From the NCBI GenBank assembly GCA_007375645.1, contig VMER01000002.1:29710-93709 (forward strand): a DNA stretch of 64,000 bases, written 5' to 3'. Source of the stretch: Parcubacteria group bacterium LiPW_15 (GTDB taxonomy: Bacteria; Patescibacteriota; Minisyncoccia; UBA6257; 2-01-FULL-56-20). Below are positions 14,817-33,938 of the stretch, one piece after another; position 1 is the first letter of the stretch; every line of letters begins with the position of its first letter. Made by a program: the position numbers and the translations under genes. The notes beneath the pieces are model-generated. The model had not been told where the DNA came from and made no database searches. It saw nothing but the letters and a program-made list of their open reading frames with translations.

Positions 14817-16373
14817 ATGGGTTATACTAATGAATACATGGCGAAGAATGTGGTTCTCATAATCCTGGACGGCTGGGGCATAGGAAGAAACGACGAATCC
14901 AACCCCATCTATATGGTCAAACCCCAGAATCTGAAGTCTCTGGAAGACAATTACCCGGTAACGAGCCTTCAGGCCTCCGGAATCTCCGTGGGACTCCCCT
15001 GGGGCGAGGTCGGGAACAGCGAAGTGGGCCATTTAACTATCGGCGCAGGCAAAGTCATCTACCAATATTTTCCGCGCATCACCATGGCCATCCAAGATGG
15101 AACTTTTTTTGAAAATCCGGCATTCAAAGCGGCCTGCGACCACGCCAAAAAAAATAATTCGTTTTTAAATCTCGCAGGACTCCTATCCAGAGGAAATGTC
15201 CACGCCTCCCTCGACCACCTGAAGGCGCTTTTGAAATTCGCCGAAAAAGAAGGGGTAGCAAACGTGCGCCTACACCTCTTTTCCGACGGGAAAGACTCCC
15301 CGCCCAAAACGCTTGAAAAGTTTTTGACGGAGCTTCCAGCGGAAAAGATCGCATCTCTGACCGGCCGGTATTACGCGATGGATCGCGAAGGCAATTGGCG
15401 GCTCACCGAACAAGCTTACAACTGCATGACCGGAACTTCGGGAACGCTTGCTAAAAACAATCTCCCGAAGCTCATTGCCGACAATTATGCGAAGGGTTTG
15501 AACGAGGAATATCTGCCCCCGCTTCGGCTTCAGGAAGACGGCGGAATAAAAGATAACGACGCACTTTTCATTTTTAACTACCGCGAAGATTCCATCCGGC
15601 AAATAGCGGAGTCTTTTATCGTAAAAGATTTTGATAAATTCGTAAGGAAGGATTTTAAAAACCTTTTCGTGGCAACCATGACCCACTACATGGACAAATT
15701 CGATTGCCCGGTCGCCTTCCCCTCGGAAGTGGTTAAGTCTCCGCTCGGCAAAGTGATAAGCGACGCAAAAATGACCCAGCTCCGCCTCGCGGAATCCTAC
15801 AAATATGCGCACGTAACTTATTTCTTCAACGGATTCACCGAGCCTCCATTTGAGGGCGAATATCGCGTTTTGATCCCGTCCGAACCCATCCCCCACCCGG
15901 ACGAACACCCGCAAATGATGGCCTCCTCAATAACCGACCGGCTCATTCAAGCCATCGAAAATCGAGCCTTCAATTTTATTTTGGTAAATTACGCGAACGG
16001 CGACACTATCGCCCATACCGGAAACTACAACGCTGCCAAAGAAGCGGTTAAAACAATCGATAAAGAGATCGGGCGCGTCGTCCAATCGGTTCTCGCGAAT
16101 GACGCCCTGCTTTTTATCAGCTCCGACCACGGCAACGTAGAAGAACTCCTAAATCCGATGACCGGCCAACCCGAAACCCAGCACGACCCAAATCCGGTTC
16201 CCTTCTACGTGGTTGGAAATGAATTTAAGGGCAGGAAATTTATCAACTGGCAAACCGTGGCCACCCAACCGATCGGCATTATCTCCGACATCGCGCCCAC
16301 GATACTCGAAATAATCGGCATCCAAAAACCGGAGGATATGAACGGAAGAAGTTTGCTTCGAGACCTGCTTTAG
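14817..16373 (+). CDS. gpmI: 2,3-bisphosphoglycerate-independent phosphoglycerate mutase
   Basis: 518 aa. VVLIILDGWG .. SDHGN, the iPGM pattern. Confidence 0.9.
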   Translation: MGYTNEYMAKNVVLIILDGWGIGRNDESNPIYMVKPQNLKSLEDNYPVTSLQASGISVGLPWGEVGNSEVGHLTIGAGKVIYQYFPRITMAIQDGTFFENPAFKAACDHAKKNNSFLNLAGLLSRGNVHASLDHLKALLKFAEKEGVANVRLHLFSDGKDSPPKTLEKFLTELPAEKIASLTGRYYAMDREGNWRLTEQAYNCMTGTSGTLAKNNLPKLIADNYAKGLNEEYLPPLRLQEDGGIKDNDALFIFNYREDSIRQIAESFIVKDFDKFVRKDFKNLFVATMTHYMDKFDCPVAFPSEVVKSPLGKVISDAKMTQLRLAESYKYAHVTYFFNGFTEPPFEGEYRVLIPSEPIPHPDEHPQMMASSITDRLIQAIENRAFNFILVNYANGDTIAHTGNYNAAKEAVKTIDKEIGRVVQSVLANDALLFISSDHGNVEELLNPMTGQPETQHDPNPVPFYVVGNEFKGRKFINWQTVATQPIGIISDIAPTILEIIGIQKPEDMNGRSLLRDLL

Positions 16374-22255: not shown

Positions 22256-22297
22256 TAAAATCTCGAAAGTTAAAAAACGACGTAAGCCGTTTTTTTG

Positions 22298-22326
22298 TTG
22301 ACACAAGAAAACCATCTTGCTATAAC
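22298..22326 (+). promoter_or_regulatory. Sigma70-like promoter. TTGACA, 17-nt spacer, TATAAC.
   Basis: ttgaca at 22298-22303 and tataac at 22321-22326, upstream of the CDS at 22355. Confidence 0.45.
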
Positions 22327-22354
22327 GCAACTAGTCTTTCGAAAGGAGAACCAT

Positions 22355-22879
22355 ATGGAACTCAAACGAAATGGTTTCCTCTACGGCTTCGCGTACGCTT
22401 GGGCAAAGAATCCCCCCGATCAGACAGGCTCCTTTAGATTCCCTGGGCGGCTGATCCTGTCGCTCTTCATCGGCTGGCCCATCATTGTGCCGCTCGCCTT
22501 CCTCTTTTTGGCAATGGTGCCCGCGCGGGATGGCCTGGAAGTCTGGGGCGCCTGGAGGAAACGCGTTGGCAGGGATGTGCCTCCCGCCTGCGTTGCTATA
22601 ATCGTCGCGGCCGCCATCGGCGCAGCCTGGGGAATGATCCTTTGGCTCCTCTGGTCATTCGGCGGAGTCGCCCTCCCCAAGGATCCTCCGCTGCCGCTTG
22701 CTCTTGTCATGCTCCTGGGTCTTTATGGCTGGTTTGTGGGTCTCTGCGCATCCGCCGTTGAAGTCCTGTGGTTGGGATACAAGATCATCCTGTGGCTGGG
22801 ACGCAGGATTCTCATCCGCACCAATACCATCCGAGCATCCCTGAAGAAAAAGTTCTGTTTTGTCATCCGTTTCGTGTAA
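22355..22879 (+). CDS. Hypothetical polytopic membrane protein
   Basis: SD gaaaggag lies 7 nt upstream of ATG 22355. About 4 TM helices. Confidence 0.5.
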   Translation: MELKRNGFLYGFAYAWAKNPPDQTGSFRFPGRLILSLFIGWPIIVPLAFLFLAMVPARDGLEVWGAWRKRVGRDVPPACVAIIVAAAIGAAWGMILWLLWSFGGVALPKDPPLPLALVMLLGLYGWFVGLCASAVEVLWLGYKIILWLGRRILIRTNTIRASLKKKFCFVIRFV

Positions 22880-22934: not shown

Positions 22935-25900
22935 TTAGCCCTTCCTGAGTCCCAGCCAGGCTTCCGCTCCGTCGAACTTGGTCGCTATTTCCGCGTCGAA
23001 TTTACCGCTCTTCTTGTATTCGATTCCTTTGGCGCCAACCTCCATTTTTATTTTTGCTTCGCTGTTTTGAGCCGCAAGTTCCATGTCGGCGGGGAGCGCG
23101 AGCATCAAAAATACTTTGTCTTTCGGCGAAAGTTTGGCGCTCTGCCTGAGTTCTTGGACGGCGCGCATCACTTCGCGGACCAATCCCTCTTCCTTGAGCT
23201 CGGCAGTAATTTCTTTGTCCAATTCCACTTCGCCCTCGATTCCTTTTTTAGACGCAACCTCTTTTACGTTCACTTCGTCGCGGATAATATCCAAAATTTC
23301 TTTGTCTTTTATTATCTTCGCGGAAGATTCTTTTATCCAGAGAGTTTTCAAGGGTTGGCGAACTTTTATTCCCGCGGCGGCCCTGGCAGCGAGACCGAGA
23401 CTCGAAACCTTGCGCGCCTCTTTCATTTGCGCGAGAAGCGATTCACTTTTTATTTCCGCGATCTTCGGCCAATCCGCGAGATGCACGGATTCTTTCTTTT
23501 TACCGGCAAAAGACAAAAGCTCCAAATACATCGCTTCGCTCATGAACGGCATAAAGGGAGCGGCGAGCTTTTGGAGATTCAGGAGGGCAAAATAGAGGGT
23601 ATCCGAAGCGGCGGCAAAGTCCTTTTTATCTTCCGCTTTTTGGAAGCGGCGCCTGGAGCGGCGGATATACCAGCGGGAAAGATCGTCCGTAAATTCCTCC
23701 AGCGCCAAAGCCGCGTTTCTCACATCGTATTTTTCCAAAGACTCGGTAACGATCTTCGCCGCCTCCGAAAGCCGCGCGCTTATCCAGCGATCCAAAATAT
23801 TTTTAGAAACCCCAGGCTTCGGCGAAGGCTTCTTTCCGTAGGTGCGGAAAAATACCAAAGAGTTGAATGCCAGCATGTGGAATTTCCTGTAGCTCTTCAA
23901 TATCTCCAGCTCGTCAAAATTCTTCGGCTCTCCCGCCGGATTGACGGTGTAGAAATACCAGCGGACCGCGTCTACCCCGTATTTCTCTATCATATCCCAG
24001 GGGCTTACCACGTTCCCTATATGCTTGCTCATCTTTTGCCCGTTCTTGTCGTGAATGAGGCCGAGCGATATCACGTTTTTGAAAGGCTCTTTATATCCCA
24101 AAAGGGTCGCCAAAGCCAAAAGCGTGTAGAACCAGCCGCGGGTCTGGTCCATCGCCTCGCAGATATAGTCCGCGGGATAATTTATTTTATTAATAAGCGA
24201 AAGCTCTTTGGCCCCGGGAATTGTCCCCTTCTTCATTTGCTTGAACGGAAAATGTTCTTCGGCCAGCGGCATCGCGCCGGAATCCAACCACACATCCGCG
24301 ACCTCCTTCACCCTTTTCATTTCCTCTCCGCAGGCCGGGCAGGAAACCGCGATAGAATCCACATAGGGGCGGTGCATATCCAGTTCTCCGAATTCATTCA
24401 TCGGTAAGTTGGGAACTTTTACTTTCCGAACCTCGCCGATCTTTATATAGTGCTCGCTCGCGAATTTTTCCCTCGGCAAAAGCGAAAGGGTAGATTCCAA
24501 TATCCACAAAGGGTCGCCGTGGCTTACGACCACAATTCTTTTCCCACGATATTTGGTGTTTATTTTTTTGGCAAAATCAAAAGTGCGCTTGATAACGTCG
24601 GAAAGCGTCTCTCCTCCCGGCGCGGACTTCACAAACCGCTCCATGGGATTCTTAAAGAACTTTCTGTAGTCCCTTACCTTGCGCCAATTAAAAGATCCCG
24701 CGTTAAGTTCCACGAGCCGCTCATCAACGATTATCTTCGCTCCGGTGGTTTTTTTGATTATTTCCGCGAGATCCATACAGCGCGCGTAAGGCGAGGAGTA
24801 AATGATATCTATCTTTTCTTTGACGAGCTTCGCGGCGATCTTTTCGCCGTCCTTAATTCCTTTTTTGGTGAGATGCGATACATGCTTGCCGCTCTCTTCT
24901 CCCGAGGCGATAACCCCGGTCAAAATATGGTCCGCTTCGGTGTGGCGCACAAAATAAAATTGATTCTTGTGGACATCGTTTGCGCTGAGTTCCGCGCGGC
25001 TTCCGATGGTCTTCATCGCATCGCAATGACTGCAGCGCCAGATCGGCAAAGGCGTACCCCAATAGCGTTCGCGCGAAATTGACCAATCCTTAGCCTCTTT
25101 GAGCCACTCCCCGAACCGGCCCTCTTTAAGATGCGCGGGCTCCCAGTTGATCCCCTCGTTTCTTTCTCGAAGTTCTTTCCGAAGCCGGCTGACCTCAAAG
25201 AACCAGGCTTTCCTCGCGAAATATATGAGTGGGGCATTGCAACGCCAGCAGAACGGATATTCGTGCTCAACTTTTCCGGACAGGTACATTATTCCCCTCT
25301 TTATAAGATCGGCGGAGATATCATTGTCCGCTTCTTTTATAAATTTTCCGGATCCGGGAAGGTCTCCCGTCACACGTCCTTCGCCATCGATAGTCGCGAT
25401 CACTTCCATCTTCGGGTAATGCGCCGCGACCAGCTTGAAATCGTCCTCGCCGAAAGCCGGAGCGATATGCACGAATCCGGTTCCATCCTCGGTAGAGATA
25501 AAATCCGCCGGTAAGATCTTATACATTTCTTTTTTGTCCGCGCCGGGCACATCAAAGATCGGCTCATAAGAAAGGCCTAAAAGTTTGGCGCCGGATATTT
25601 TTTCCACCGCTTCTATTTCCGGAGTTGAACCGTCCTCCGACTTGGGAGTCGGCGGCGCGGAATAGGACCACAAATAATCCTGCCCAACTTTATATTTTGT
25701 ATAGGTGAGCTTCGCGTCCGCTGCAATGAACATGTTGGATGGCAGGGTCCACGGGGTTGTCGTCCAAACCAAAATATATTCGTTGTTATTCTTCGAACCC
25801 GGCCGTTTCAAGCGAAATTTAATATAGACGGAAGGATCCGGAACTTTTTTATAGACGTCCGGCTGGGCAAGTTCGTGGCTTGAAAGCGCAGTCTGACAGC

Positions 25901-26462
25901 GAGGACAATAAGGCACGATTCTCCGGCTCTCTTTCAAAAATCCGCGATCGGAAATGACTTTGAATATCCACCATAAACTTTCGATGTAGTCGTTATCGTA
26001 GGTGATATAGGGGTCTTCCATGCTGAGCCAGTAGCCCATCCGGTCGGTAAGGCGCTCCCACTCATCTTTATACTTCCAAACCGATTCCTTGGCTTTCTGG
26101 TTAAAAAGATCGATGCCGAATTTCTCGATATCCCGCTTGGTTTTGAGACCCAGTTCCTTTTCCACGCCCACCTCCACCGGAAGCCCGTGCGTGTCCCAGC
26201 CGGCTTTGCGGGGCACATAAAAACCTCGCATCGTTTTATAGCGCAAAATAATATCTTTAAAAGCCCGCGCGAGTACGTGGTGGATGCCCGGACGGCCGTT
26301 AGCGGTCGGCGGACCCTCGTAAAATACAAACTCCTTCCGCCCCTTGCGCTTGGCCAAACTTTTTTTGAAAGTCTTGTCGGCCTTCCAGTACTCCAGAACC
26401 TTCTCTTCGGTTTTGGGTAGGCTAAAATCTCCTTTAAAGTCCAACATTAGTTTTTTTATCAT
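22935..26462 (-). CDS. ileS: Isoleucine--tRNA ligase (type-2 / eukaryote-like) carrying an inserted histidine-phosphatase domain
   Basis: KDIILRYKTMRGFYVPRKAGWDTHGLPVE, WxISRERYWGTPLPIW, KMSKH and DVWLDSG all match the IleRS type-2 pattern. Residues about 505-700 (nt about 24389-24974) match the His_Phos_1 pattern: VRHTEADH .. LT..G .. DIIYSSPYARC .. VVVSHGDP. Start is uncertain, at 26462 or 26447. Confidence 0.8.
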   Translation of the reverse strand: MIKKLMLDFKGDFSLPKTEEKVLEYWKADKTFKKSLAKRKGRKEFVFYEGPPTANGRPGIHHVLARAFKDIILRYKTMRGFYVPRKAGWDTHGLPVEVGVEKELGLKTKRDIEKFGIDLFNQKAKESVWKYKDEWERLTDRMGYWLSMEDPYITYDNDYIESLWWIFKVISDRGFLKESRRIVPYCPRCQTALSSHELAQPDVYKKVPDPSVYIKFRLKRPGSKNNNEYILVWTTTPWTLPSNMFIAADAKLTYTKYKVGQDYLWSYSAPPTPKSEDGSTPEIEAVEKISGAKLLGLSYEPIFDVPGADKKEMYKILPADFISTEDGTGFVHIAPAFGEDDFKLVAAHYPKMEVIATIDGEGRVTGDLPGSGKFIKEADNDISADLIKRGIMYLSGKVEHEYPFCWRCNAPLIYFARKAWFFEVSRLRKELRERNEGINWEPAHLKEGRFGEWLKEAKDWSISRERYWGTPLPIWRCSHCDAMKTIGSRAELSANDVHKNQFYFVRHTEADHILTGVIASGEESGKHVSHLTKKGIKDGEKIAAKLVKEKIDIIYSSPYARCMDLAEIIKKTTGAKIIVDERLVELNAGSFNWRKVRDYRKFFKNPMERFVKSAPGGETLSDVIKRTFDFAKKINTKYRGKRIVVVSHGDPLWILESTLSLLPREKFASEHYIKIGEVRKVKVPNLPMNEFGELDMHRPYVDSIAVSCPACGEEMKRVKEVADVWLDSGAMPLAEEHFPFKQMKKGTIPGAKELSLINKINYPADYICEAMDQTRGWFYTLLALATLLGYKEPFKNVISLGLIHDKNGQKMSKHIGNVVSPWDMIEKYGVDAVRWYFYTVNPAGEPKNFDELEILKSYRKFHMLAFNSLVFFRTYGKKPSPKPGVSKNILDRWISARLSEAAKIVTESLEKYDVRNAALALEEFTDDLSRWYIRRSRRRFQKAEDKKDFAAASDTLYFALLNLQKLAAPFMPFMSEAMYLELLSFAGKKKESVHLADWPKIAEIKSESLLAQMKEARKVSSLGLAARAAAGIKVRQPLKTLWIKESSAKIIKDKEILDIIRDEVNVKEVASKKGIEGEVELDKEITAELKEEGLVREVMRAVQELRQSAKLSPKDKVFLMLALPADMELAAQNSEAKIKMEVGAKGIEYKKSGKFDAEIATKFDGAEAWLGLRKG

Positions 26463-26522
26463 ATAGCAAAGTTTTGCCCTTCGCAATTTCGCGGGGTTTT
26501 ATATATTACTCAAGTTCCCGCA

Positions 26523-28220
26523 TTAAATCTCCTCCGGCGAGCTAATGCCCAAAATCGACAAGCCGGTCTTCAAAACATTCCGAACCGCGTCAATAAGCAC
26601 CAACCGGGCATTAAGCCTGGCCTTATCCGCATCTTTTAAGATCGGCGTGGTCTCGTAAAAGCGATTGCCGAGATTCGCGAGCTCATATAAATAGAGGGTA
26701 ATGTTATTGACGCCGAACTGCTCGGCGCTCTTTTCTATTTCTTCCGGAAAATCCAAAAGCTTCTTTACGAGAGCCATCTCTTCGGGATTCGACAGCCTCG
26801 TAAGATCATAGTTGCCTATTCTTTTCGCTTTTTTTATTACCCTCGAAAGCCTTGCGAATGTGTATTGGAGGTACGGCCCACTCTGCCCCGAAAGCGAAAG
26901 CATCTTCTCCCAATCAAAAACTATGTCGCTGTGCCGATGTTCTTTGAGGTTGAAATACTTCAAGGCTCCGACACCGACGCTTTCGGATATCTTATCCGCC
27001 TTTTTTGCCGCCATCTCCGGATTCTTTTTTGAAACCACTTCTTTGGCGAGCGCTTTAACTTTGTCTATCACCTCTTCCGCGGAAACCACGCGGCCCTCCC
27101 TGGTTGAAAACTTCTTTCCTCCCTCGGCTAGAACTAACCCGTATTTTATATGGTGAAGTTCGGCCAATTTATCCAGGCCCAAAATATTAGCTACCGCGAA
27201 AAGCTGTTCGAACTGGAATGTCTGTTCGTTGCCTATCACATACAATATCTTCGCGGGTTTATATTTTTTAAGCCGGTAGCGGATGTTCGCAATGTCGCGC
27301 GTGAGGTAAAGACTCGCCCCGTCGGATTTCTGAATAAGTCCGGGTAATAGATTGTATTTGTCGAGCGGAATGACTACCGCGCCTTCGCTCTTGACCGCAA
27401 TCCCCTTCTCGAGCATTTCCGCGATAAGCGGAGTCATCTGACGCTCGTAAAAACTCTCCCCCAGCCAGACGTCGAACTCGGCGCCCAAGAGCTTGTACAT
27501 TTTTTTGAATTCCAAAAGCGATTCTTTTTTGAACCATTCCCAAAGTTTGCGGTTCTCTTTGTTACCGCTCTCAAGTTTCTGGAATTCCTCTCTCGCCTTC
27601 ACCTCCAGCGTCTCGTCGGACTTCGCCTCATCGTGAAACTTAATATATAGAGCGGTCATAGCCGCGATTGGCTCTTTCTCTATTTCCTTTCTATTCCCCC
27701 AGAGTTTGTAGGCCACAATAAGCTTACCGAACTGCGTCCCCCAGTCGCCCAAATAATTCCAGCGGACCACTTTGTAACCCAAGGCTTCGAAGACATTCGC
27801 GAGCGAATCGCCGAGGATGGTGTTTCGCAAATGCCCCACATGCATCGGTTTCGCGATATTATTGGAAGAATGCTCCACTATTATCCTTTTTCCTTTTCCG
27901 ATGTTGCTCCGGCCAAACTTCTTTTTATTTTTATAAATTGCGAGTAGCTCTTTGCGCAGAAACTCATCCGAAAGCCAGAAATTCAAAAATCCGGGCGCCA
28001 CGGTTTCGATTTTCGAAAAAAGTCCTTTGGGCGCGGAGTTCAAAATTTTCTCTTTAAGTTCTTCGGCAATATTAAGCGGAGCCTTCTTCTCTATCGGCGC
28101 AAGCCGCATAGCAACGTTCGTGGAATAATGGCCAAACTCGGAATGTGCGGGAATGGAAATCTCCGCCGGAAATCCGGATGGTATAAATTCTTTTATTGTT
28201 TTTTCTATTAATTCTTTCAT
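26523..28220 (-). CDS. argS: Arginine--tRNA ligase
   Basis: HVGHLR class-I motif, the ArgRS N-terminal add-1 domain and a DALR-like C-terminus. Start trimmed to MKELIEK (28220). Confidence 0.9.
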   Translation of the reverse strand: MKELIEKTIKEFIPSGFPAEISIPAHSEFGHYSTNVAMRLAPIEKKAPLNIAEELKEKILNSAPKGLFSKIETVAPGFLNFWLSDEFLRKELLAIYKNKKKFGRSNIGKGKRIIVEHSSNNIAKPMHVGHLRNTILGDSLANVFEALGYKVVRWNYLGDWGTQFGKLIVAYKLWGNRKEIEKEPIAAMTALYIKFHDEAKSDETLEVKAREEFQKLESGNKENRKLWEWFKKESLLEFKKMYKLLGAEFDVWLGESFYERQMTPLIAEMLEKGIAVKSEGAVVIPLDKYNLLPGLIQKSDGASLYLTRDIANIRYRLKKYKPAKILYVIGNEQTFQFEQLFAVANILGLDKLAELHHIKYGLVLAEGGKKFSTREGRVVSAEEVIDKVKALAKEVVSKKNPEMAAKKADKISESVGVGALKYFNLKEHRHSDIVFDWEKMLSLSGQSGPYLQYTFARLSRVIKKAKRIGNYDLTRLSNPEEMALVKKLLDFPEEIEKSAEQFGVNNITLYLYELANLGNRFYETTPILKDADKARLNARLVLIDAVRNVLKTGLSILGISSPEEI

Positions 28221-28252
28221 TTTGTGGCCAACGTATCTCTGCCTTCCGGCTC

Positions 28253-28280
28253 TTGACGAAATAACGCCCCTGCGTATACT
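28253..28280 (+). promoter_or_regulatory. Sigma70-like promoter. TTGACG, 16-nt spacer, TATACT.
   Basis: ttgacg at 28253-28258 and tatact at 28275-28280. Divergent from argS. Precedes a GC-rich unit that ends in an intrinsic terminator. Confidence 0.4.
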
Positions 28281-28286
28281 TGTCAT

Positions 28287-28419
28287 TGGTCTTTGCTTGG
28301 GTTGTCGCTGGGCACCGTTCGCACCGCCGCACACCCTCCTTTCTGCGCGTTGCTCGCCCCCCTCGCAAACACCACCGCGGTGATTGGGTCCCTGCCGGAC
28401 CTGGTCACCGCCTTTTTTT
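28287..28419 (+). ncRNA. Candidate small RNA or transcription-attenuator leader upstream of smpB (about 130 nt)
   Basis: Its own promoter, a C-rich body (caccctcctttctgcgcgttgctcgcccccctcgc) and a 13-bp stem (28379-28391 / 28397-28409) followed by T7 (28413-28419). No plausible CDS. Confidence 0.3.
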
Positions 28420-28453
28420 ATTTAATCGCTTCTTATTAGAATACAGCCCCTTT

Positions 28454-28924
28454 ATGCCGGCCGCAAATAACCGTATCATTAAACGTATGGGCGCTTTAGC
28501 GGAGAACAGAAAAGCTAGGTTCGATTATGAAATATTGGAAACCCTTGAATCCGGGGTGGAGCTTTTTGGTTTTGAAGTAAAGTCTGTTCGCGCCGGAAGA
28601 ATGGAGCTTCCCGGAAGCTATGTGATAATCCGCGGCGGAGAAGCCTATTTGGTGAATGCGAAGATTCCCGCCTATCAACCGAAAAACGCGCCCGAGGGTT
28701 ACGATCCGACCCGCGCCCGCCGGCTTCTTCTCCACAAAGAACAGATAAGCCGTCTCACGGGATTTTTGGAAACCAACCACTACCTTATCCCCCTCTCGAC
28801 TCATTCCAAAAAAGGATTGATAAAACTGGAACTCGGTCTGGCGCGCAAACGAAAGAAATCCGATAAACGTGAAGTTATAAAAAAACGCGAAGTCCAAAAA
28901 AAGATCCGCGCGCGCGAAGACTAA
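28454..28924 (+). CDS. smpB: SsrA-binding protein SmpB
   Basis: ENRKARFDYEILE .. FGFEVKSVRAG .. LLLHKEQI .. LIPLS.HSKKGLIKLELGLARKRKKSDKR. Confidence 0.85.
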   Translation: MPAANNRIIKRMGALAENRKARFDYEILETLESGVELFGFEVKSVRAGRMELPGSYVIIRGGEAYLVNAKIPAYQPKNAPEGYDPTRARRLLLHKEQISRLTGFLETNHYLIPLSTHSKKGLIKLELGLARKRKKSDKREVIKKREVQKKIRARED

Positions 28925-30121: not shown

Positions 30122-30444
30122 GGGGATGCCGGGCTTCGATAATGATGTCCCGCGTGCCTGCGAACCGAGCGTGACCTCGCTAAACTCACAAAAACTTTAA
30201 CTGCCAACTTTAACGTTGCAGCTCCGTCCCGCGCTTTAGCTTACGCTTAAGACCTGACGGCGCCGATTGCTCTGGGTCTCTTAGAGTAAATCCGGTGTTA
30301 TATAAGGAGACTGGCAAACAGCTTTTGATTCCGAACTGTTTGTAAGAAATTGGAATCGTTTCTGCCTGATCTAATCAGACTACGTTCGTAGATGGCTCGT
30401 GTTCTTCATCTTTACACGGCGGTTCGACTCCGCCCATCTCCACC
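30122..30444 (+). ncRNA. ssrA: tmRNA (SsrA), 323 nt, CCA encoded
   Basis: 5' GGGGATGCCGGGCTTCGA pairs with 3' ..CATCTCC-ACCA to give a 7-bp acceptor with a G3:U70 wobble, the alanine identity element. T-arm GGCGGTTCGACTCCGCC. Internal tag ORF 30203-30250 gives GCC AAC TTT AAC GTT GCA GCT CCG TCC CGC GCT TTA GCT TAC GCT TAA = ANFNVAAPSRALAYA*. Confidence 0.85.
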
Positions 30445-30451
30445 AAATAAA

Positions 30452-30764: not shown

Positions 30765-33700
30765 TTAGTCCGCTTGATCTTCGGCACCTACGGATGCACT
30801 GATTGCTATGCTCGGGGCGTCTAATGCCAGTGCGTCCATTGAAGAGGTAAAGGCATCTAATACCGCATAGACCTTCGGGAGATCCTCTGAGTAAGTGGCG
30901 GCGTAGTTATCTGTTATAACGACCTTCCCTTGTTCGGGCAAATTTAACGCTTTTATTGCGACGCCATTGGCTTTCCAGTAGTCGGCGAGTCTTTTTTTGT
31001 CAATTACTTTAGTAAATTCGCCGATATTGGCAACAAATGCGCGGCCATCAACGGATGCAAATGTGCTCGCAAAATTTATCAATAGATAATCCAAAAAGAT
31101 CTGATAGTTCTGCATATTCGTGTTGGGGTTAAAACATGTTTCGAAGAGGTAATCATTCATATCCTTTCGGATACCATGAGAGTCTCCGCTCCCGCTCTGA
31201 TCGTAATAACCACAACCGATGCCCGAACTAATGATATCGTTGCCAAGTTGATAGGTAATAAACGATTTCGCCCTATTTTTTAGCTTTGCAACTTTATCGT
31301 CAACCTCCTCCTTTGTAATTTTCCCGTCTGTCATTGCGGCATCAACAAACGAGCGGAACTCACTTGCCAAATCACCCAGAGAAAGACTGTCGATTACCTC
31401 AAATAAGTTTATTTTGGGATCTATAAATCGTGTTTTAAAAATTCTAAAAACTTTCTGGGACATCGCGCGCATCTCTTCTATGACGATTGCTCGAACGACC
31501 CCTTCAGTGGGAGCCGTGGGATTATTGTGCTTTGAGAGGGCGCGCTGCAAATTAAATATATCTCCTCCCCGGTCCGCGCTGCAGAAAAGACGGAAGGCAA
31601 GCAAATCATATAAACCCAACACGCCCCTAGACTCTGTCGAGAGCAATTCAATGACACCAACCCCAGCGTGCCTCCCTTCGCCGAAAATCCATTCTGCAAT
31701 TTCAGATATATTTTCCTCCGTATTGGCACCGCGGCGTCCATCTGGGTCTGCCCACCCAGCCTTATCTAACAGCTGTATAAGAAAATACAACAAGTCGTCT
31801 CTGAGCCCGAGCCCCAAGTCCTTGCTGGTGAACAAAGAGTAATTTGCTATATTTTGCAGAAGATACAAAATCAACGAACCGCCAACCCCTGCGCCTGCTT
31901 CCGAGATGCTATTAACGACAACTCTCCAAAGCTGTTCGTGACTTGATTCGCTCTTGGAATAAGAAAATTCTTCGCCACCGAGAACATCTTCGATCTTTTT
32001 TCCTGCAAAAATCTCATTTTTATAATTTAGATAGAATCTATATTGATTTCGTTTTTGCGGCTTGGAAAGTTTCACGATGAGATTGAGATACTCTTCCAGA
32101 TTATGCCCGCCAGTCCATCCGCCCTCGCCGTTGAAACAAGCGTATGAACTCTTTATCTCTTGGGGGACGCTGTCTATCAGGGGAAAATTATCTTTTCTGA
32201 ACCAGTCTTCGGAAACTTTAAGCCTTTGAGATGCATCAAACACCTTGTCAAGTAAAAATCGCGGATTCTCGGTTAATGTTTCGATGTATTTTGTATATTC
32301 AGTGGAATTTTTATATACATTTTTTGAATCCCCGCTCCCCGTTGGGTCTTCCGGGTAGCCAGGAGAGTATGGGTTTGGCAGCGAAAAAAATCCACTTTTG
32401 CCGTAAGTTTCGGAATCATATATTTTGCGAAATATATTTGGATAATTAATATAGATCAGAAGGAGGTGAATTAAATCATGTTTATCAAAATCACTGTTAT
32501 CAAAATCGGTTTTTTCAAGTTCGAACAGCAAAACGGTATTAAGAAGTCTTTTTAGCTTCCTTACGTCGCCGATGAAAGGCAAATATCGGTGATAGTCCTT
32601 CGATTTATATATATCTATAAGGCCACCGATAGCCTTAGAAACAAGCACCGGATCGGCCTGAGAATTTCCGGCCAAGGCCTTAGCCAGATTCTGCGAAACA
32701 TAGTTGGACAAAGTGGCGCTATCAAGGAATATACTAGTTTTTACGTTAATAAATTTCTCAAGAAATTCTGTAACTTTTTCGACACCCGGCTTCTCTCTTT
32801 CCAGCGCACTTATATTGTCCGTGTCATAGCAAAGAACGTATGAAATGTTTGGGAGGGTGAAACTTTTTTTAATGACGAAAAGAACATCCTTAATAGCGGA
32901 GAAGCTAAGCCTATCTAGATCGTCAATAATGATTATTACCTTCTTTTTAGAATCAGATAGCGCAATCTCCAAATCGTCGAAGGCATCGTCAACCGTGTAT
33001 GTCCCCGGGAAGAAATCCAACTTAAGCCCCGACCACGAAAACCCCGCTCTTCCCTTTATTAGCCTGGAATACCTTGATATAAGAGGTCTTATTTCTGGTA
33101 TAAACTCGTTTTTCTGTATGGTCCGAACAAGGCCGTCAACAAACTTTTCTAGTAGGTTTGACCGCCCCTCGTATCTCAGCGGGTTAAAGCGATAAACTAC
33201 CGCCCCCTTTTTATATTCATCGTCTTTTTCCCAATATCCCCTACACAAATTTACGAAAGATGATTTTCCTATGCCCCAAGGGGCGTCTATCCCAAACACG
33301 ATACTATCCGAAGACCCACGATTAAAAACTTTTTCCGCAAACCGTCTTGCGGCGTCCGAAAAGCCCAGCAAATCATCCCCTTCCGGTTTCAATTCGGCAT
33401 CGCTTATAAAAAATGAATGCTCGTTTATTTTTATTCTTTTTTTAAATCTACCCAACGCTGCTTTTAATAGAAAAATTAGGCAAAGAATAAAAGGCAAAGA
33501 AAGCAATGCGAAAATTTGACCAATCGTAAGCGCAGACGCCAGCACTGCATATTGGCGCGAGAAGAACCCTCCAAAGGAAAAATCTACTAAAATTCCCGCG
33601 GATGCAGCAATCGCGATATCCCACCTAGCACTTCTTATTAGCCTAACAAAATCCAAGAAAAATCCTCTGCCGGCTAAATATCCAACAACCAATATCGCGC

Positions 33701-33938
33701 AGGACACAACGATGCTGGAGGCTTCTAGTTCATAGCTCCTGGAGATTATATAGGCGCAAATTTTTAGAGCGACGGGAACAGACAGATACACTACCTCAGA
33801 ACACAAAACCCCAACCCCAAAGGCTTTTATCAGGGCTGTCAGATTTGCCATCCCTATTTTAAAATCTGGAGTTTTTGGCATATTCGCACCTCCAGCATAA
33901 TGCAGCCCCGCCAGAAAGCAATAATTCGTAGCCATCAC
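30765..33938 (-). CDS. KAP-family P-loop NTPase with an N-terminal 4-TM domain (1057 aa)
   Basis: Walker A GIDAPWGIGKSSF and Walker B IIIIDDLDRL, i.e. KAP signatures G.WG.GKS and hhhhDDLDR. About 170 aa of N-terminal TM helices. Long helical C-terminal region. Confidence 0.8.
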   Translation of the reverse strand: MMATNYCFLAGLHYAGGANMPKTPDFKIGMANLTALIKAFGVGVLCSEVVYLSVPVALKICAYIISRSYELEASSIVVSCAILVVGYLAGRGFFLDFVRLIRSARWDIAIAASAGILVDFSFGGFFSRQYAVLASALTIGQIFALLSLPFILCLIFLLKAALGRFKKRIKINEHSFFISDAELKPEGDDLLGFSDAARRFAEKVFNRGSSDSIVFGIDAPWGIGKSSFVNLCRGYWEKDDEYKKGAVVYRFNPLRYEGRSNLLEKFVDGLVRTIQKNEFIPEIRPLISRYSRLIKGRAGFSWSGLKLDFFPGTYTVDDAFDDLEIALSDSKKKVIIIIDDLDRLSFSAIKDVLFVIKKSFTLPNISYVLCYDTDNISALEREKPGVEKVTEFLEKFINVKTSIFLDSATLSNYVSQNLAKALAGNSQADPVLVSKAIGGLIDIYKSKDYHRYLPFIGDVRKLKRLLNTVLLFELEKTDFDNSDFDKHDLIHLLLIYINYPNIFRKIYDSETYGKSGFFSLPNPYSPGYPEDPTGSGDSKNVYKNSTEYTKYIETLTENPRFLLDKVFDASQRLKVSEDWFRKDNFPLIDSVPQEIKSSYACFNGEGGWTGGHNLEEYLNLIVKLSKPQKRNQYRFYLNYKNEIFAGKKIEDVLGGEEFSYSKSESSHEQLWRVVVNSISEAGAGVGGSLILYLLQNIANYSLFTSKDLGLGLRDDLLYFLIQLLDKAGWADPDGRRGANTEENISEIAEWIFGEGRHAGVGVIELLSTESRGVLGLYDLLAFRLFCSADRGGDIFNLQRALSKHNNPTAPTEGVVRAIVIEEMRAMSQKVFRIFKTRFIDPKINLFEVIDSLSLGDLASEFRSFVDAAMTDGKITKEEVDDKVAKLKNRAKSFITYQLGNDIISSGIGCGYYDQSGSGDSHGIRKDMNDYLFETCFNPNTNMQNYQIFLDYLLINFASTFASVDGRAFVANIGEFTKVIDKKRLADYWKANGVAIKALNLPEQGKVVITDNYAATYSEDLPKVYAVLDAFTSSMDALALDAPSIAISASVGAEDQAD

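Follow-up and report, generated by a model that had tools for sequence, protein, structure and literature searches.

Why would an isoleucyl-tRNA synthetase (IleRS) carry a second, complete enzyme inside its catalytic core? The question is raised by a 64,000-nucleotide (nt) stretch of the Parcubacteria group bacterium LiPW_15 genome (contig VMER01000002.1; hereafter the window), whose ileS gene encodes a type-2 IleRS interrupted by a histidine-phosphatase domain. Our answer, drawn from sequence comparison and gene order and given a probability of about 0.62, is that this synthetase, with its swapped GXHH signature motif and PhoE/PspA-like insert, represents the fused form of a free-standing phosphatase gene whose product would be a dedicated partner of IleRS.

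A phosphatase inside IleRS and its free-standing counterpart

The window encodes a single interrupted IleRS. The ileS open reading frame (ORF; 22935–26486, reverse strand) extends to a TTG at 26486 and encodes 1183 residues, the numbering used throughout. The true start is probably the ATG at 26462 (gene 22935–26462, 1175 residues), since a 95%-identical homologue (P0001) has 1175 residues. ORF calls, Pfam and the NCBIfam ileS equivalog TIGR00392 (828.6 bits against a cut-off of 621.4) all identify an IleRS. TIGR00392 aligns in two stretches that flank the insert, and Pfam's class I catalytic domain is split around a His_Phos_1 match. The protein does not reach the exception models for MupA/MupB, the enzymes of acquired mupirocin resistance (726–734 bits against 1900).

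The insert replaces a short linker in the zinc knuckle. Window residues 19–503 align with residues 6–479 of the T. thermophilus IleRS (1ILE) and residues 702–1040 with 488–821, leaving ~198 residues in place of an 8-residue linker; alignment to the P. megaterium IleRS2 (8C8W) places the insertion just as cleanly. Based on PF00300, AlphaFold2, Foldseek and the 1ILE alignment, we assign a branch-1 histidine-phosphatase domain to residues 504–700 (24387–24977, reverse strand). Pfam His_Phos_1 (PF00300) matches residues 510–677 (E = 7e-28; 98 bits against a gathering cut-off of 21.7), and the excised segment 24389–24974 matches it on its own with high significance (E = 2.9e-29; 102.5 bits). The domain is immediately flanked by the IleRS motifs IGSxxEL and LDxHRPYxD and sits between the two Cys pairs of the knuckle, C485-S-H-C488 on its N-terminal side (25023–25034, reverse strand; aligned to the C461/C464 region of 1ILE) and C716-P-A-C719 on its C-terminal side (24330–24341, reverse strand), the latter preceded by LDxHRPYxD. 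The DVWxDSG strand with which the second Rossmann half continues follows directly after the knuckle. By chain order, the insertion site would be the last connective-peptide element before that half, corresponding to connective peptide 3 (CP3) in the nomenclature of PMC11685878.

These results bear out the core of the original prediction, which was made from the sequence alone. It had proposed an in-frame histidine-phosphatase domain with an RH...R...E...H residue set, on which hidden Markov model (HMM) searches, structure prediction and residue conservation now agree, and had placed 150–200 extra residues between the two CxxC pairs. All of the peptides it quoted were found in place: PGIHHV at residue 66, RCSHCDAM at 484, VRHTEADH at 513, HLTKKG at 538, IDIIYSSPYARC at 559, VVVSHGDPL at 652, SCPACGEEM at 715 and DVWLDSG at 731.

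This architecture is old and common among Paceibacteria-type Patescibacteria. The 120 best homologues, 52–95% identical to the window IleRS and taken from NCBI, JGI, ENA and Logan assemblies, all combine PF00300 with IleRS domains. Conservation counts below come from a set of 121 homologous sequences at ~55% identity. Across this set the insert is 195–212 residues long and averages 48% identity to the window, against 59% for the rest of the protein. A scan of GTDB, with one genome per species and a motif taken from the phosphatase domain, found 345 stretches encoding a relative. Among the best 80, 79 embed the domain between the same IleRS junctions, and no embedded-type locus of these 80 carries a second phosphatase copy. 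Named sources include Colwell-, Lipton-, Harrison-, Brenner-, Niyogi- and Jorgensenbacteria as well as Paceibacterota.

The single exception among the 80 loci, L074, reveals a free-standing counterpart of the insert. In it, argS, a 189-residue His_Phos gene and an insert-less ileS stand in a row. Searching with the L074 protein returned 759 relatives at E <= 1e-8, and the 120 strongest are without exception free-standing, at ~190 residues (one, a fragment, has 142). Gene context was retrieved for six further family members on long contigs, and all six are found directly upstream of an insert-less ileS of 886–978 residues as called; a 100-residue ORF precedes the 886-residue call, whose start was probably misplaced. 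In these operon-type loci the genes usually run smpB<>argS-hisphos-ileS-recO, and in L074 and L083 the phosphatase stop codon overlaps the ileS start as ATGA. One operon-type locus (L085/L086, 1965–2548) holds a HepT-like/MNT (NTP_transf_2) toxin-antitoxin pair and a GIY-YIG gene between infC and smpB.

The window retains this gene order with the phosphatase slot empty. The smpB<>argS-ileS synteny is common to the window and the operon-type loci, and the divergent orientation of smpB and argS marks the window locus as their orthologue. The window argS, encoding arginyl-tRNA synthetase (ArgRS; 26523–28334, reverse strand; ORF list and synteny), lies directly upstream of ileS across a spacer of 36 nt. 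That spacer is the position occupied by the free-standing phosphatase gene in related genomes; in the window the domain is inside ileS instead. Neither a second His_Phos copy nor a second IleRS, a valyl-tRNA synthetase (ValRS) or a leucyl-tRNA synthetase (LeuRS) occurs in the 64-kb window, the part of the genome that was searched.

Metagenomes confirmed the linkage at larger scale. Scanning metagenome contigs with the free-standing phosphatase family yielded 80 loci. The phosphatase gene stands no more than 250 nt upstream of ileS in 48 of them and 0.5–1.4 kb upstream in 4; in 23 the domain is embedded in ileS, in 5 the contig ends too early to tell, and in none is the phosphatase unlinked to ileS. 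The family is thus upstream of ileS or inside it at all 75 informative loci, and no locus of the 80 has both forms. An insert-less IleRS with an intact short knuckle was seen at 33 operon-type loci. The operon-type partner IleRSs are only 38–50% identical to the window enzyme and differ in their class I HIGH motifs (PHYGH, GIHH, GVHH), which indicates that the linkage of phosphatase and ileS survives deep divergence.

Embedded and free-standing forms are closely related yet separable. They share the motifs NxF/YF.LRHG, LT.KG, SHGDPLW.LEG and GE.RK. We built a bootstrapped neighbour-joining tree of the domain (40 replicates) from clean sets; short-contig gene fragments can mimic free-standing proteins. 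Embedded copies form one clade (recovered exactly in 22 of 40 replicates, best-F 0.96) and ileS-adjacent copies a separate one (29 of 40, best-F 0.99), a pattern consistent with one ancient event of fusion or fission.

Related domains occur at other sites and in other synthetases. Scanning 1.84 billion representatives with the insert (HMMER) gave 6833 matches, 561 of them at E <= 1e-10, and we viewed the best 150, which include many IleRSs and several variant architectures. Some IleRSs carry two His_Phos_1 domains (P0223, P0254, P0208, P0259, P0245, P0188, P0270), which either stand in tandem within the knuckle or occupy additional sites that follow the DVWFDSG region and precede the anticodon-binding domain. 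The core R, H, R and H are intact in each copy, and the E626/R634 pair is intact in nearly all. A His_Phos domain is also found in ValRS (P0258, with relatives P0418–P0475 and P0529; loci L092, 5001–8225, and L174, 4001–7168). About 45 of the top 120 ValRS clusters carry His_Phos_1 after the ...DTWFSSG...LGWP segment, a site different from that of the IleRS insert. These forms come from Magasanikbacteria, Falkowbacteria and other Patescibacteria, groups that also hold insert-less ValRSs. In the tree, ValRS inserts mostly cluster apart from the IleRS-linked copies. A related domain has thus entered ValRS separately from IleRS.

Three further fusions extend the range of architectures. An ArgRS with a C-terminal His_Phos_1 domain (P0202) fits the argS-hisphos gene order. 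In a 1395-residue IleRS (P0184, a single sequence), the phosphatase insert is accompanied by a P-loop kinase-like domain at residues 728–910, after the CWFESG region, with a Walker A motif GACGAGKT and Pfam AAA_18/AAA_33 scores near threshold. In P0174, likewise a single sequence, a phosphatase 34% identical to the window insert is fused to PUA_2 and ATP-sulfurylase domains.

Mutual replacement of embedded and upstream forms points to a phosphatase dedicated to IleRS. We infer a physical and functional partnership, as in other Rosetta-stone cases, which the fusion would have fixed. Given the gene neighbourhoods, a functional tie to IleRS is much more probable than moonlighting free of it. Several observations weigh against a dedicated partnership. 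Co-expression by itself can account for operon linkage and fusion, and the spatial coupling of phosphatase and synthetic site is itself inferred from genetics. No phosphatase gene adjoins insert-less valS at the one Magasanikbacteria locus inspected, leaving the ValRS case without an operon counterpart. Close free-standing paralogues without ileS linkage exist (P0149-type, in Paceibacterota, beside secA), and among characterised proteins the closest, only 20–25% identical, are ordinary phosphatases of small metabolites. Nor do the single-sequence fusions identify a substrate: the PDB matches of the P0184 P-loop domain (APS kinase, shikimate kinase, Pnkp1; E 0.02–0.05) are insignificant, and we rejected it as a clue; P0174 offers a weak one.

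The rival that survives best makes the phosphatase a hitch-hiker. A housekeeping enzyme for small metabolites, of phosphoserine-, alpha-ribazole-phosphate-, phosphosugar- or broad PhoE-type specificity and independent of IleRS, would have come to lie beside ileS by chance and been captured later in a permissive surface loop, the gain being co-expression with an essential gene and nothing more. The domain's best sequence and structure matches are indeed PspA, PhoE, GpgP, the riboflavin-pathway phosphatase HFP and CobC, the insertion site is a naturally variable loop (those 8 residues in T. thermophilus), the ArgRS fusion resembles simple read-through of neighbouring genes, and paralogues such as P0149 live apart from ileS. 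Yet the linkage holds at 75 of 75 informative loci across divergent partners, a related domain was inserted independently in ValRS and twice in some IleRSs, placing a domain within an essential enzyme's catalytic core is a high price for co-expression alone, and no curated equivalog threshold is reached (CobC 80/163, PspA 76/350, dPGM_arch 75/225 bits). We therefore regard hitch-hiking as unlikely.

Catalytic residues and fold of the insert

The insert retains a complete histidine-phosphatase active site. R514-H515, the phosphate-binding Arg and nucleophilic His of the RH(G/T) motif (24942–24947), R569 of the SPxxR motif, the second Arg of the phosphate pocket (24780–24782), and H656, the second catalytic His, within a family-specific SHGDPLW motif (24519–24521), are each conserved in 121 of 121 sequences. 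E593 of the ExNxG motif, the putative general acid/base (24708–24710; all four features on the reverse strand), is kept in 120, with one Asp. A wider alignment of 160 rows (159 homologue domain copies and the window) has R514-H515 in every copy that covers the position, that is 148 rows, the other 12 being gaps at truncated ends, and Glu or Asp at the E593 position in 157; nearly all of these copies keep the remaining catalytic residues as well. N508, T540, G543, S565, P566, G597, E626, R634 and P695 are kept in at least 98% of the 121 sequences. From this residue set the insert is predicted to be catalytically active through a phospho-H515 intermediate.

Could the fold instead be a silent module, recruited to bind phosphate or tRNA or to act as an allosteric sensor without turnover, for example of the tRNA 5'-phosphate or a phosphometabolite? 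Domains appended to aminoacyl-tRNA synthetases (aaRSs) are often RNA-binding or regulatory, the glycine of the RHG motif is Thr in the window and in 30 of the 121 sequences, and at position 521, where Asn usually follows RHGE, the window has Ile. But the nucleophilic His, both Arg residues and the second His are invariant, and the near-invariant Glu counts further against a silent module because binding alone would not need it. The full residue set also recurs in free-standing, duplicated and ValRS-embedded copies. A catalytically silent role is accordingly improbable.

Structure prediction places the insert among short PhoE-type phosphatases. AlphaFold2 modelled the domain alone with a predicted local distance difference test (pLDDT) score of 92.7 and a predicted template-modelling score (pTM) of 0.90; the full-length model scores pLDDT 88.2 and pTM 0.79, and the blocks of the insert, at 91–97, are among its most confident parts. 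Its Foldseek neighbours are PspA, GpgP (Rv2419c), the riboflavin-pathway HFP, PhoE and CobC, with template-modelling (TM) scores of 0.75–0.79, E-values down to 9e-14 and, for PspA, PhoE, GpgP and CobC, probabilities of 1.00. Cofactor-dependent phosphoglycerate mutases (dPGMs) reached TM scores of 0.69–0.75 and are longer. The best sequence matches in the PDB are the phosphoserine phosphatase PspA (4IJ5; E = 4e-12) and PhoE (1H2E).

The insert fits no characterised subfamily. The best-scoring model, alpha-ribazole phosphatase CobC (TIGR03162), gives 80.2 bits, half of its cut-off of 162.9. PspA, the closest solved structure at 24–25% identity, gives 76.4 of 350 (NF045917). The dPGM models stay below their cut-offs as well (pgm_1, of the TIGR01258 group, 24.4/81.7; dPGM_arch 74.9/225; GpmB 57/261), and SixA (TIGR00249) yields a 54-residue partial match of 23.8 bits against 74.5. 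We rejected assignment to any of these, since no curated threshold was reached and the structural neighbours spread over several specificities. For the same reason the insert is best described, from its sequence, as a short PhoE-like branch-1 enzyme of undefined specificity. The PGM/SixA-like label of the original prediction thus holds for the superfamily and fails for the closer likeness to SixA or dPGM, HMM scores and Foldseek placing the domain nearer the short PhoE/PspA/CobC/GpgP type.

The insert is very improbably the cell's own dPGM, moonlighting inside IleRS in a reduced genome. Superfamily membership and the weak archaeal dPGM match (75 bits) speak for it. But the window encodes a complete cofactor-independent phosphoglycerate mutase (iPGM; 14817–16373, forward strand; iPGM_N 2e-58, Metalloenzyme 4e-60), so the genome does not depend on the insert for glycolytic mutase activity, dPGM models fall far short (pgm_1 24/82, dPGM_arch 75/225), and the fold is nearer the PhoE type; with the iPGM present and the dPGM models failing, we ruled this candidate out.

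An assembly or binning chimera that joined the phosphatase to ileS, the error against which the original prediction had cautioned and which only the a priori oddity of the architecture favours, is a negligible prospect given the same in-frame architecture in 120 of 120 nearest homologues from separate assembly sources and at 79 of 80 inspected loci among 345 species representatives, an unbroken GC content across the insert, and a ratio of nonsynonymous to synonymous substitution rates (dN/dS), measured against the closest genome (L001), of 0.048 in the insert and 0.026 in the rest of the gene (dS ~1.1), which shows that the insert is under purifying selection.

The host synthetase and its locus

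The host enzyme has the motifs of a working IleRS. Its class I HIGH motif reads G-I-H-H (residues 67–70; 26277–26288, reverse strand). This reading had been noticed from the sequence as an oddity; the reading stands, the oddity does not, as GXHH is a known IleRS2 variant. In GXHH, positions 1 and 3 of HXGH are swapped; the swap is frequent and catalytically tolerated in IleRS2, where it confers mupirocin hyper-resistance (Brkic et al. 2023, PMC10485003). Among the 121 sequences, the eight commonest HIGH variants cover 107, of which 102 are swapped (GxHH/AxHH-type) and 5 are canonical PHMGHV. The motif is independent of the phosphatase insert, and GIHH also occurs in one operon-type, insert-less IleRS. 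The KMSKS loop reads K-M-S-K-H (residues 818–822; 24021–24035, reverse strand); KMSKS is found in 112 of the 121 sequences and KMSKH in 4. The CP1 editing motifs are kept, WTTTPWTLP at residue 241 and GTGFVHIAPAFG at residue 335. In the zinc knuckle, C485 is conserved in 119 of 121 sequences, C488 in 94, and C716 and C719 both in all 121. With class I signature and editing motifs intact, the enzyme is predicted to activate isoleucine and charge tRNAIle.

Further genes of translation flank the locus. Divergent from argS lies smpB (28280–28924, forward strand; Pfam SmpB, 1.1e-42). Its listed ORF runs into the end of argS, so translation probably begins at a later codon. A tmRNA gene with the tag ANFNVAAPSRALAYA follows close to smpB (30122–30445, forward strand). 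Adjoining this region, a 1057-residue protein (30765–33938, reverse strand) has a KAP-family P-loop NTPase domain (E = 7e-39) as its sole recognised domain. Immediately downstream of ileS but on the other strand, an ORF (22295–22879, forward strand) encodes a hydrophobic 194-residue protein without a Pfam match; it lies in a GC-rich patch, chiefly 22400–22850 (GC 0.60–0.63, against ~0.48 around it).

The nearest known counterparts of the window enzyme are the type-2 bacterial IleRSs. It shares family and domain order with the solved IleRS2 structures (8C8U–8C9D, 1ILE): a split Rossmann fold, CP1 editing domain, zinc knuckles, anticodon-binding domain and DUF5915-type C-terminus. The GXHH motif is common to it and the enzymes of Brkic et al. 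(2023, PMC10485003). Where those structures have ~8–10 residues between the knuckle Cys pairs, the window has a phosphatase of ~195. That insert goes unmentioned both in PMC10485003 and in a 2026 preprint on the evolution of IleRS domains.

Known fusions and loop modules offer partial precedents. The curated family NF040702 (ileS_w_GNAT) is an IleRS with an extra enzyme domain, there a GNAT N-acetyltransferase rather than a histidine phosphatase, and the window is no member (242 bits against 1999). In the RNase H/CobC-type acid phosphatase of the M. tuberculosis Rv2228c type (NF005567), a short His_Phos_1 domain is fused to a nucleic-acid enzyme. The insert matches its phosphatase half (E = 6.5e-19), but that protein is an end-to-end fusion with a different partner rather than a core insertion, and the window scores 68.5 against a cut-off of 326. 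We know of no settled reason for the Rv2228c-type fusion. Lineage-specific modules of class Ia synthetases, such as the INS subdomain in ARD2 of IleRS2, resemble the insert in placement, as extra loop modules that modulate catalysis or tRNA binding; bacterial LeuRS has another, its leucine-specific domain. These modules are small and non-enzymatic, whereas the window insert is a whole enzyme from a different superfamily, its active site intact. Compared with PspA (4IJ5/4IJ6), PhoE/YhfR (1H2E), GpgP Rv2419c (4PZA) and CobC (6NRU), the insert has the same fold, catalytic residue set and size of ~200 residues; it differs in its low identity (20–25%), its own motifs (SHGDPLW and a C-terminal GE.RK strand) and its family's position in, or directly upstream of, an aaRS.

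The architecture is visible in databases yet uninterpreted. Precomputed Pfam annotation lists PF00300 for insert-bearing IleRSs, JGI labels some ValRS forms 'valyl-tRNA synthetase/broad specificity phosphatase PhoE', and NCBI labels many insert-bearing IleRSs only 'class I tRNA ligase family protein'. A free-standing 197-residue phosphatase (P0414) bears the JGI label 'isoleucyl-tRNA synthetase'. No curated NCBIfam model for a phosphatase-bearing IleRS was among the matches to the window protein, and a keyword literature search, with most subscription journals outside its coverage, found no paper on an aaRS-histidine-phosphatase architecture. The architecture had been predicted to be unusual: within its lineage it is common, yet it is not ordinary, because it was found in no curated family and in no paper.

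Possible roles of the phosphatase

The predicted reaction follows the chemistry of the superfamily. Histidine phosphatases work through a phospho-histidine intermediate, with an Arg/His pocket and a Glu acid/base. In the insert, R514, R569 and H656 would hold the terminal phosphate while H515 attacks it to form the intermediate, and E593 would protonate the leaving group and then activate water. Being tethered to the catalytic core of IleRS, the phosphatase would stay near that core and in a 1:1 ratio to the synthetase.

Three kinds of substrate can be ranked. To our knowledge, no phosphomonoesterase has an accepted part in tRNA charging. First, tentatively, comes a ligand phosphate of the aminoacylation cycle, either a nucleotide product or pyrophosphate (PPi), or a 2'- or 3'-phosphate on the tRNA acceptor end. 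Towards nucleotide or PPi the ATP-sulfurylase fusion P0174 is a weak hint, as ATP sulfurylase is also a PPi-releasing adenylyl transferase. Second, and unlikely, would be a phosphorylated residue of IleRS. Toxin kinases of the HipA type inactivate GltX and TrpS, and by analogy the phosphatase might reset an inhibitory phosphorylation of the HipA-on-GltX kind. Third, and no likelier than the second, would be an unrelated small metabolite, the linkage then serving co-expression only.

The dedicated-partner reading may point to a previously unrecognised IleRS-associated phosphatase in Patescibacteria, deployed as an upstream cistron or as an IleRS insert, with a parallel insertion in ValRS. That dephosphorylation is integral to aminoacylation or its control in these bacteria is a serious possibility, though we put it at slightly less than even odds. 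Candidate substrates would then be nucleotide or PPi bound to the synthetase, an acceptor-end phosphate of the tRNA, or a phosphorylated site of the synthetase.

The aaRSs are among the best-studied enzymes; here a complete foreign enzyme sits in the catalytic core of one, and the domain is encoded in hundreds of species-level genomes. One consequence concerns annotation: insert-bearing IleRSs are vaguely labelled, and some free-standing phosphatases are mislabelled as IleRS. The gene-order evidence makes the functional partnership directly testable with recombinant protein. If the partnership is true, a major uncultivated radiation of minimal-genome bacteria would have a new auxiliary step in tRNA charging, such as product clearance or healing of tRNA ends; alternatively, the phosphatase may provide a new regulatory phospho-switch on the synthetase, or a defence against kinase toxins or inhibitors.

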